A stretch of 20,206 nucleotides of DNA. Origin: a virus. Lineage: Duplodnaviria; Heunggongvirae; Uroviricota; Caudoviricetes. The notes under the pieces are model-generated. The model made no database searches and was not told where the DNA came from. It saw only the letters and a list, made by a program, of their open reading frames with translations. Numbering within the stretch: the first letter of the stretch is position 1; every line of letters begins with the position of its first letter. A program made the position numbers and the translations under genes. Where the stretch lies: IMG/VR virus record IMGVR_UViG_2667527827_000004, positions 1-20,206 of that record, one strand, 5' to 3'. Positions 17,754 through 19,178 of this stretch are shown here, one piece after another.

Positions 17754-17927
17754 CTAGATTAAATCAATCTTGATATCATAGCTTTCAAGACCAGTCATTT
17801 TTTCCCGTGCAGTAAACTGGATACTGGTAACTTCTTTCCCGGTCTTTTTCTTAAGCTCAATGATTTTTTTTGTTATATATTCAGAAATATCTGCTTCTGT
17901 TTTTGTTTTTAACTCTTCAATGTTCAT
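17754..17927 (-). CDS. gnsB: GnsA/GnsB family protein
   Basis: 57-aa product MNIEELKTKTEADISEYITKKIIELKKKTGKEVTSIQFTAREKMTGLESYDIKIDLI closely matches E. coli GnsA (MNIEELKKQAETEIADFIAQKIAELNKNTGKEVSEIRFTAREKMTGLESYDVKIKIM), recalled from memory. Assigned to gnsB because of the prophage context. The ORF-track start at 18020 is an extension. Confidence 0.75.
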   Translation of the reverse strand: MNIEELKTKTEADISEYITKKIIELKKKTGKEVTSIQFTAREKMTGLESYDIKIDLI

Positions 17928-18099
17928 CATTTCCTCTTTTAGTCTGTTATGACTTTCCTGGTACACAGTAGTGTCAATTATATGGAGCAAACGTATAAAA
18001 GATAAGATGAAACATCGCAATAATCAACATACGACGGTCTAAATTTCACACAAACAGATAAAGATGATTATCATTTATTATCAATGCATTAGAATCAAA

Positions 18100-18255
18100 T
18101 CAATTCAAGAGTCTCATTGCTGCTTCCAGAATTTCTTCTGAAGTTACATGTCGATCCGCTGCTACATAAATGACTTTATGATCTCCGGTCAGAGATGGAA
18201 ACCCTGCAGCCATTACAGTGAGGTGTGTTGTTTCGCCATTTGGATATTCACGCAT
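18100..18255 (-). CDS. YnfN-like small prophage protein
   Basis: From the ATG at 18255 the product is 51 aa (MREYPNGETTHLTVMAAGFPSLTGDHKVIYVAADRHVTSEEILEAAMRLLN). Its position between cspI and gnsB matches the Qin-type arrangement as I remember it. The start is uncertain: in-frame ATGs also occur at 18291 and 18276 and none has a strong RBS. Confidence 0.5.
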   Translation of the reverse strand: MREYPNGETTHLTVMAAGFPSLTGDHKVIYVAADRHVTSEEILEAAMRLLN

Positions 18256-18375
18256 GATGGTGTTAACTCCGGTCATCACTGGCACTACCATTGCTGGTTC
18301 AGAGTTAAAAAAAACTATTATTTTTTTTCATAATGTTACCGTAATATGTGAGTATCCATCGACTAGACACTAAGC

Positions 18376-18395
18376 AAAAAAGCTCCCGAAGGAGC
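18376..18395 (-). terminator. Putative rho-independent terminator after the cspI-downstream small ORF
   Basis: Hairpin GCTCC-CGAA-GGAGC (18382..18395) with A6 at 18376..18381 on plus, giving T6 after the hairpin on the minus strand. Lies ~8 nt downstream of the small ORF stop at 18404..18406. Confidence 0.5.
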
Positions 18396-18403
18396 CTTCA
18401 TTT

Positions 18404-18619
18404 TCACTTTCTTAAATCTAACGATAGACGGCTAACATTTAAGTATTGTGAAATATTATCAAATGTAATCATCATTGATTTACAAAAGATACATTTTGCC
18501 CCGAAAGGATTCCTGTCAGAAACATCAAAAGATGATGTTCTATACTGAGAACCATGGCAACACGGGCATCTAAAGTGAATATGGTTTGTAATATTTTCTA
18601 CCTCAAAGTGCCACAACAT
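18404..18619 (-). CDS. Small Cys4 zinc-ribbon protein, Ogr/Delta-like (hypothetical)
   Basis: 71-aa [63 protein letters not shown]... Its ATG overlaps the cspI stop (ATGTTGTGGCACTTTGA). Motif CPxC-(5)-RTS-(13)-CxxC-...ITF.N.SQY parallels phage P2 Ogr (CPLC-(6)-RTS-(13)-CxxxxC-...ITYESVQRY), by recall. A terminator follows directly. No obvious RBS. Confidence 0.4.
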
Positions 18620-18815
18620 GAACAGCCGCGGGGCCTTTAGGTCCGTTCTCAATACCAAATTCGACTTCCTGATTCTCAGTTAACGTTTTGAAATCGTTGC
18701 TCTGAATAGCTGAGAAATGGACAAACACATCTTTGCTACCATCTTTCGGCGTGATGAAACCAAAACCTTTTTCAGGGTTAAACCATTTCACTAAACCAGT
18801 CATTTTGTTAGACAT
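18603..18815 (-). CDS. cspI: Cold shock protein CspI (CspA family)
   Basis: [70 protein letters not shown] is a 70-aa CspA-family protein with RNP1 (KGFGFI) and RNP2 (VFVHF) motifs, matching the Qin prophage CspI by recall. The ORF-track start at 18818 adds one extra Met. Confidence 0.9.
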
Positions 18816-19178
18816 CATTATTACCTTTTGAAGAAGTTAGCCCTTGGGCAGAATGGTCCGAAAAAAAATATCAGAGAGAAAAACCAACAAGGAAATCTCA
18901 AGAGGTACAAATAATAAAATTATAACAATGACTGCTTCAGATAATTTTGTAACAAACCAGAACACCATTAACGCATGATTAACCAACCATAGCAAGGATT
19001 ACTTTTGTAAAGAAAAACACACGAATGAAACAATAGCTTTATTTATTAATAAAACGTGTCATTCTGTCTAATGACCTTTTATCTTACCCTTAAGATTTCA
19101 AGGATTTTGACTCATGGAAGAGTCCTTTTTATTTAAATTTCACATTCAGCGCTAAAAATAATCCGATTTAATATTAAT

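Follow-up and report, generated by a model that had tools for sequence, protein, structure and literature searches.

The ynfQ cistron behind cspI

The window analyzed here is a stretch of 20,206 nucleotides (nt) of viral DNA (IMG/VR record IMGVR_UViG_2667527827_000004, positions 1 to 20,206). It represents a largely intact lambdoid prophage of the Qin family, located at the ydfJ locus, that carries genes for tail, portal and terminase, followed by the cluster gnsB-ynfN-ynfQ-cspI and then by Rz and R. The feature under study lies directly behind cspI, and all its positions are given for the minus strand. As read from the sequence, a frame of 71 codons is open here from an ATG at 18619..18617 to a TGA at 18406..18404, covering the last 17 nt of cspI, whose TGA stop occupies 18605..18603. 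The same frame is also open further upstream, back to a TTG at 18658. The original prediction, made from the sequence alone, took this open reading frame (ORF) of 71 amino acids (aa), overlapping the cspI stop, as the gene, and regarded its product as a relative of the Ogr/Delta late-gene activators. The open frame and the overlap with cspI are indeed present; the start codon and the length of 71 aa did not hold. With a probability of roughly 90%, this ORF corresponds to ynfQ, the prophage-borne member of the YmcF family (cold-shock small proteins), which forms the second cistron of the cspI transcript, starts with an ATT codon, encodes a product with four invariant cysteines (Cys4) and belongs to a cargo module (Table 1).

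The identity of the gene follows from several comparisons. PF23641 (YmcF-like) was the single Pfam match of the 71-aa ORF, with 112.6 bits against a cut-off of 27 (E-value 1e-32), and it spans residues 10-70 of the ORF and positions 1-61 of the 62 in the model. The invariant core of this family reads F-x-C-P-x-C-x-G-S-Q-Y-R-x-S ... N-P-x-G-A-K-C-I-F-C-K, and every invariant column is present in the window protein. The RefSeq gene of the closest record has 62 codons and corresponds to window positions 18404..18592. The window protein is identical to the 62-aa WP_071528545.1 of the strains REL606, HS and ATCC 8739, and 95% identical to the K-12-type YnfQ cluster. The counterpart in K-12 is ynfQ (b4724, 1638256..1638444, 189 nt), which is located within the cryptic prophage Qin. 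By megablast of the region 18000-19100, the locus was found in 2149 of 5426 complete E. coli genomes, where it is annotated as ynfN, a too-short hypothetical gene, ynfQ or ymcF ('cold shock small protein YmcF'), and cspI. The product has 62 aa, about 7.2 kDa and a basic isoelectric point of about 9 (8 K+R versus 4 D+E). The family as a whole is narrow, as an exhaustive search of 1.84 billion representative proteins with a profile hidden Markov model (HMM) returned 42 clusters at E≤1e-3. Thus, the gene is already known: it is named, it belongs to a Pfam family, and it is annotated in RefSeq.

The window gene shares with YnfQ (b4724) and YmcF (b4723) of K-12 the length of 62 aa, the ATT start, the spacing of 10 nt after a gene of the CspA family, and the downstream neighbors ynfR, ynfN and gnsB, which are paralogous to ymcE and gnsA. 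It differs from K-12 ynfQ in that TTG replaces TAG shortly before the gene in the window allele, so that the frame is open as far as an ATG within cspI. The module also differs from that of K-12, because ynfR is cut to 12 codons and the long form of ynfN is frameshifted. The discovery of the YmcF/YnfQ family is said to have been made by proteomics by D'Lima and co-workers in 2017 (J Proteome Res 16:3722), and a protein of the YmcF family reportedly accumulates after cold shock. Two surmises of the original prediction, namely that the ORF is one of the tiny under-annotated proteins of Qin-type prophages and that it encodes a small stress protein co-transcribed with cspI, were borne out with the assignment to ynfQ and to the cold-shock small proteins of the YmcF family. 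It should be noted that VanOrsdel et al. 2018 used the name 'ynfQ' for a different gene, now called ynfT (37 aa, 1632890-1633003; PMC6001520, Table 1), and that statements on 'YnfQ' in that paper do not apply to b4724.

The cysteine site and the predicted fold

In the numbering of the 71-aa ORF, cysteines are found at positions 18, 20, 21, 43 and 46, while residues 27-29 form an RTS motif. Four of the cysteines are invariant throughout the family, distant members included, and these form a CPxC pair (residues 9 and 12 of the 62-aa protein) and a CxxC pair (residues 34 and 37), which gives YnfQ the pattern C-x2-C-x21-C-x2-C. In the distant members, C-P-x-C ... C-I-F-C is retained, whereas the third cysteine near the first pair and the histidine after it are not: these members have CPAC, CPKC or CPSC there and Q, S, G or L in place of the histidine. 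Because the third cysteine and the histidine are not conserved in these members, the universal set of putative ligands consists of the four cysteines. An AlphaFold2 (AF2) model of YnfQ built from 38 sequences had a mean predicted local distance difference test (pLDDT) score of 73, with values of 84-91 over residues 11-40. No significant structural match was obtained for this model, and profile searches of PDB sequences and of PHROGs gave nothing significant for YnfQ. YnfQ is most readily interpreted as a basic microprotein of the Cys4 zinc-ribbon type. The four cysteines would together hold one metal ion, in a small knuckle of the zinc-ribbon or rubredoxin-like kind, to be followed by a variable and probably helical tail, and YnfQ might then serve as a small nucleic-acid- or protein-binding accessory factor in the cold-shock response.

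Among the alternatives to this assignment, the one that survives best is that the metal center is a redox-active iron, either a rubredoxin-like Fe(Cys)4 site or an iron-sulfur site, and that YnfQ is an electron carrier or redox sensor; we nevertheless consider this unlikely. A review of 2026 models YnfQ as rubredoxin-like with Fe2+ (PMC13348028), and YnfQ resembles rubredoxin-like knuckles in placing two CxxC motifs around one putative metal, but no significant sequence or fold match to rubredoxins was found and the aromatic core signature of these proteins was not detected. Weak local matches to the box II region of the Rieske protein PetC (NCBIfam E-value 0.06; PDB E-values 0.09-0.2) and the extra cysteine and histidine beside the first knuckle in the E. 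coli members point in the same direction. These matches are, however, short and non-significant, the extra residues are precisely those that distant members lack, and the operon partners of ynfQ are an RNA chaperone and modulators of membrane lipids rather than redox enzymes. The local stretch concerned, CPCCHGSQY (18539..18565, residues 10-18 of the 62-aa protein), closely resembles the Rieske box II CPCHGSQY and yields weak matches to the cytochrome b6f iron-sulfur subunit. A Rieske-like iron-sulfur site was considered and rejected on the lack of conservation of the third cysteine and the histidine.

The zinc ribbon of TFIIE-alpha and archaeal TFE-alpha (PDB 1vd4, 5gpy) is likewise a Cys4 ribbon of similar size. 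One metagenomic relative of YnfQ carries this label, and the corresponding NCBIfam match (PRK06266) is faint. A further weak NCBIfam match, over 18407..18592, was to the ECs_2282 putative zinc-binding CxxC family (E-value 0.0034; 17 bits, below the cut-off of 37). In the K-12 Qin prophage, YnfU, also a small protein with putative zinc binding, is encoded between essQ and cspB.

The translation start of ynfQ

To define the start codon, we compared 81 loci, comprising 78 species representatives (GTDB genomes), K-12, strain CFSAN018748 and the window. At the position aligned with 18592-18590, 59 of these loci have ATT, 4 have ATC and 17 have ATG, while a single locus has an ATG one codon downstream. 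In the window, the Shine-Dalgarno sequence GAGG is located 8 nt upstream of the ATT. A purine-rich GAGG or AAGG precedes the start throughout the homologous loci and includes the stop codon of the csp gene (TGAGG or TAAGG). In K-12 no ATG, GTG or TTG is present between the upstream TAG and the conserved core. The ATT starts of YmcF and YnfQ were reportedly mapped experimentally in the 2017 study by D'Lima and co-workers. In a passage of PMC10191623, D'Lima et al. 2017 is cited for AUU start codons.

On an alternative reading, the real product of the TTG allele (18616..18614) is the 71-aa protein initiated at ATG 18619, whose reading frame overlaps the 3' end of cspI. From this ATG on, the frame is open in the window as well as in REL606, HS and ATCC 8739, an open ATG is present at the same position in 17 of the 80 homologous loci, and versions of 70-71 aa have been predicted by gene callers for Citrobacter, Salmonella and phage metagenomes. 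Nevertheless, we judge this reading improbable. No Shine-Dalgarno sequence was found upstream of ATG 18619, and this codon sits inside the translated frame of cspI. The nine additional residues are not conserved, and an in-frame stop interrupts the nine upstream codons in 35 of the 80 homologous loci, K-12 included. The stop follows the ATG directly in K-12 and six other loci: where the window reads 'ATG TTG TGG', the sequence is 'ATG TAG TGG' in K-12, Shigella, E. ruysiae, another E. coli and phage Tritos, in all of which no ATG, GTG or TTG follows between this TAG and the core. At 18615 the window has a T that K-12 lacks, and in cspI this difference is synonymous (GTT versus GTA, both Val). 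Moreover, the match to the Pfam model starts at residue 10 of the ORF, and for the very TTG allele that the window shares with REL606, HS and ATCC 8739 RefSeq still annotates the protein of 62 aa. Because of these in-frame stops, the unconserved extension, the missing Shine-Dalgarno sequence at the ATG and the RefSeq length, the 71-aa ORF is, as judged from the aligned loci, an allele-specific accident and 18404..18592 the real coding sequence. In all likelihood, YnfQ is translated without the nine-codon extension.

Comparison with the Ogr/Delta family

The resemblance to Ogr on which the original prediction was built is tangible. With P2 ogr from NC_001895 as the reference, the spacer from RTS to the next cysteine has 13 residues in the window protein, exactly as in P2 Ogr, and the C-terminal tail, described beforehand as similar, does align with FITYESVQRYI of Ogr. 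Like P2 Ogr and P4 Delta (PF04606), YnfQ is a protein of about 60-70 aa that has an F-x-C-P-x-C knuckle at the N-terminal end, an RTS strand with this spacer to the second knuckle, and thereafter an I-T-F/Y strand and, further on, Q-x-Y. In BLASTP, 48 residues of YnfQ and P2 Ogr were colinear, with 27% identity and a pairwise E-value of 2e-6. The Smith-Waterman score of 65 was reached by none of 5000 shuffles (mean 24, standard deviation 4.6), even when the cysteine positions were kept fixed. The YmcF and Ogr alignments compared by hhalign gave 49 colinear columns in the same register, though with a probability of only 12.4% (P-value 0.0024).

Nonetheless, membership of the Ogr/Delta family was not borne out. 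Pfam Ogr_Delta did not match the window protein or any of 40 relatives at E≤10, although P2 Ogr itself scores 76.9 bits on PF04606. Two HMMs, one from 22 Ogr and one from 38 YmcF sequences, scored only 6-15 bits on the respective other family (6-10 bits for the Ogr HMM on YnfQ) against a gathering cut-off of 26.3 bits, and there was no Ogr-like protein among the 42 clusters that the YmcF profile returned. Two cysteine pairs are present together with RTS and the Ogr spacer, as predicted, but the second pair is CxxC and not CxxxxC, so that the Ogr pattern C-x2-C-x22-C-x4-C is not matched. From the set of Ogr invariants tested (A11, H12, S16, R17, Y18, K24, R26-Y27-H28-Q29, N32, T38, F39 and E43), most are missing from YnfQ, namely A11, H12, K24, R26-Q29 and N32, and the colinear alignment shares only R-T-S, the cysteines, P and T. 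The AF2 topologies also differ, with three long strands predicted for Ogr and short strands around two knuckles plus a C-terminal helix predicted for YnfQ. Finally, ynfQ lies here in a lambdoid cargo region and belongs to a cold-shock operon that is chromosomal in most Enterobacteriaceae, whereas Ogr and Delta function in the late control of P2-type phages.

It is thus very improbable that YnfQ is a P2/P4-type late-gene activator of the Ogr/Delta family acquired by a lambdoid prophage, and as a statement of membership this idea is largely refuted. Ogr/Delta membership was rejected by Pfam, reciprocal HMMs, hhalign and the exhaustive profile search, and a faint resemblance is retained. This likeness probably reflects a shared zinc-ribbon architecture or a very distant kinship. 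A bolder pair of linked ideas, to which we grant a slim chance, is that YmcF and YnfQ represent a very distant cellular branch of Ogr/Delta-NrdR-type zinc ribbons that would dock on the transcription machinery or on RNA as modulators of the cold-shock response, and that their AUU codon is an obligate re-initiation site.

Coding status and selection

Over codons 2-45 the ratio of nonsynonymous to synonymous substitution rates (dN/dS) was 0.06-0.11 wherever it could be computed in 17 comparison loci, with dN of 0.01-0.15 and dS large or saturated. The C-terminal 17 codons of ynfQ are much less constrained. The core is nearly invariant across Enterobacteriaceae, and these substitution patterns mark it as being under strong purifying selection and ynfQ as a real gene. 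The proposal that the ORF, which is short, lacks a canonical start codon and is unannotated in most phage records, is an unexpressed chance frame in the 3' untranslated region (UTR) of cspI has next to no credibility, being refuted by its placement in a curated Pfam family, by a nearly invariant core of 40 residues across Enterobacterales, by a low dN/dS with saturated dS, and by the conservation of both the Shine-Dalgarno sequence and the start position. The proteomic detection reported by D'Lima et al. 2017 also speaks against it.

The cspI transcript and possible translational coupling

The gap between the cspI stop and the ynfQ start is 10 nt. A cspA-type thermoregulator element, which was the sole Rfam match in the window at the gathering threshold, spans the 5' UTR and the body of cspI and reaches into the start of ynfQ. 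Judged by this match, the element marks the cold-inducible transcript that carries ynfQ. In published RNA-seq data, ynfQ, cspI and ynfN change in parallel (PMC11228462; PMC11728337), and the neighboring YnfR-SPA is induced by cold shock (PMC6001520).

The hairpin and T-run noted beforehand just behind the ORF were found as described, and they resemble an intrinsic terminator. Folding of the minus strand placed the stem at 18399..18378, overlapping a run of six U at 18381..18376, with a free energy of −12.4 kcal/mol and a z-score of −2.2 relative to shuffled sequences. The terminator pattern scan reported this stem solely as a plus-strand site at 18382..18395, and the minus strand was checked by folding. 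A comparable GC hairpin with a T-run is present 3' of the stop codon in many of the homologous loci. The terminator would end part of the transcripts, with read-through reaching ynfR, ynfN and gnsB.

Conservation alongside cspI, which had been suggested as a check, is evident from an intact csp gene that ends 9-10 nt upstream on the same strand in 50 of the 80 homologous loci. All 50 of these loci use ATT or ATC. An ATG start occurs only where the upstream csp gene is decayed or absent, as is the case in the Klebsiella oxytoca group, Raoultella, Shimwellia, Silvania and Citrobacter sedlakii. With a distance of 9-10 nt from csp to the start in 50 of 80 loci, and with the csp stop forming part of the Shine-Dalgarno sequence, the comparison suggests that translation of ynfQ is coupled to that of cspI. 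Ribosomes that finish cspI would re-initiate at ynfQ or translate it by coupling, and in the cold the output of YnfQ would parallel the synthesis of Csp, though below its level. If the AUU codon is an obligate re-initiation site, YnfQ would be fixed to a small fraction of the Csp output, which would explain the switch to AUG in lineages without an upstream csp gene. In C. sedlakii NBRC 105722 (locus L014, 2815..3207), csp and ymcF form an in-frame ORF of 130 aa. A functional Csp-YmcF fusion was rejected for this species, as W11 and the VFVHF motif are no longer present in the Csp part, which looks like a decaying csp gene that lost its stop.

Some points weigh against parts of the assignment of the feature to a coupled, ATT-initiated YmcF-family gene. 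Loci of Pseudescherichia retain ATT without an upstream csp gene, and the coupling rests on a correlation with few independent evolutionary events, for which reason we call it suggestive. As ATG 18619 is open in this allele, a minor 71-aa isoform may be produced. To our knowledge, no biochemical function has been established for any member of the YmcF family, and we infer the metal binding, the nucleic-acid binding and the role of YnfQ in cold adaptation.

The cargo module and its distribution

In the Qin prophage of K-12, the order of the genes is cspI-ynfQ-ynfR-ynfN-gnsB. The K-12 chromosome carries a paralogous module, cspG-ymcF-ymcE-gnsA, with the same spacing of 10 nt between csp and ymcF. 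Phage Tritos has the same cargo module between its lysis genes and the end of the genome. Furthermore, full-length matches to YnfQ with 95-100% identity were found in six further Escherichia phage records, which represent five distinct phages since 2H10 was deposited twice. YnfQ is not annotated in five of these six records (PhiR63_1, 2H10 in both deposits, mEp460_ev081 and PhiR42_1), presumably due to the ATT start. The original prediction regarded the position of the ORF in the late region as unexpected. This was not confirmed, since cspI-ynfQ-ynfN-gnsB is situated between the lysis genes and the terminase genes in several lambdoid phages. The whole module is phage cargo between lysis and terminase genes that duplicates the chromosomal cspG-ymcF-ymcE-gnsA.

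Downstream of ynfQ, the small genes of the module vary. The ynfR ORF begins within the terminator hairpin of ynfQ (ATGAAGGCTCCTTCGGGAGC...). In 18291..18331, the A-run after the upstream ATG of ynfN has 8 A in the window and 7 in CFSAN018748 and K-12, and the run of 8 frameshifts the 76-aa ynfN of RefSeq, leaving the 63-aa ORF from the ATG at 18291. The ynfN of K-12 has a different homopolymer change, in which a T-run is one base shorter. The 5' end of ynfN thus varies among strains because the lengths of the homopolymers differ.

Table 1. Features of the ynfQ region, with positions in the window, strand, and description or supporting match.
Feature	Position	Strand	Description
cspA-type thermoregulator mRNA element	18557..18973	-	Rfam RF01766, 109.8 bits (gathering threshold 78), E-value 1e-27
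cspI, CspA-family cold shock protein, first cistron	18603..18815	-	phrog_729 (cold shock protein), E-value 1e-28
Nine-codon upstream extension, ATG 18619 ... AAT	18593..18619	-	open here only since base 18615 is T (TTG) and not A (TAG)
Shine-Dalgarno sequence GAGG of ynfQ	18601..18604	-	shares G and A with the cspI stop (TGAGG); read directly
ynfQ coding sequence	18404..18592	-	62 codons and TGA, start ATT 18592..18590; based on RefSeq for identical alleles, Pfam, start codon comparison and dN/dS
Hairpin with U-run, intrinsic-terminator-like	18376..18399	-	stem of 9 base pairs, UUCG loop, starts 4 nt past the ynfQ stop
ynfR remnant	18363..18401	-	ATG and 11 codons, then TAG; RefSeq pseudo-coding sequence 'too short'; K-12 ynfR (b4749) has 21 aa
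ynfN, 63-aa ORF in this allele	18100..18291	-	phrog_3425, E-value 8e-46
gnsB, last gene of the module	17754..17927	-	phrog_2301, E-value 2e-39

Implications

There is little new about the locus itself, and the value of the present analysis is in part corrective. The 71-aa ORF with an ATG start is an allele-specific artefact as far as the compared loci indicate, the Ogr/Delta label should not be propagated, and several deposited lambdoid phage genomes are still without an annotation of ynfQ. Beyond these corrections, the switch between ATT and ATG, which tracks the integrity of the upstream csp gene, could guide functional work on this cold-shock microprotein, and the similarity to Ogr, which is below threshold but non-random, could likewise guide such work on YnfQ.
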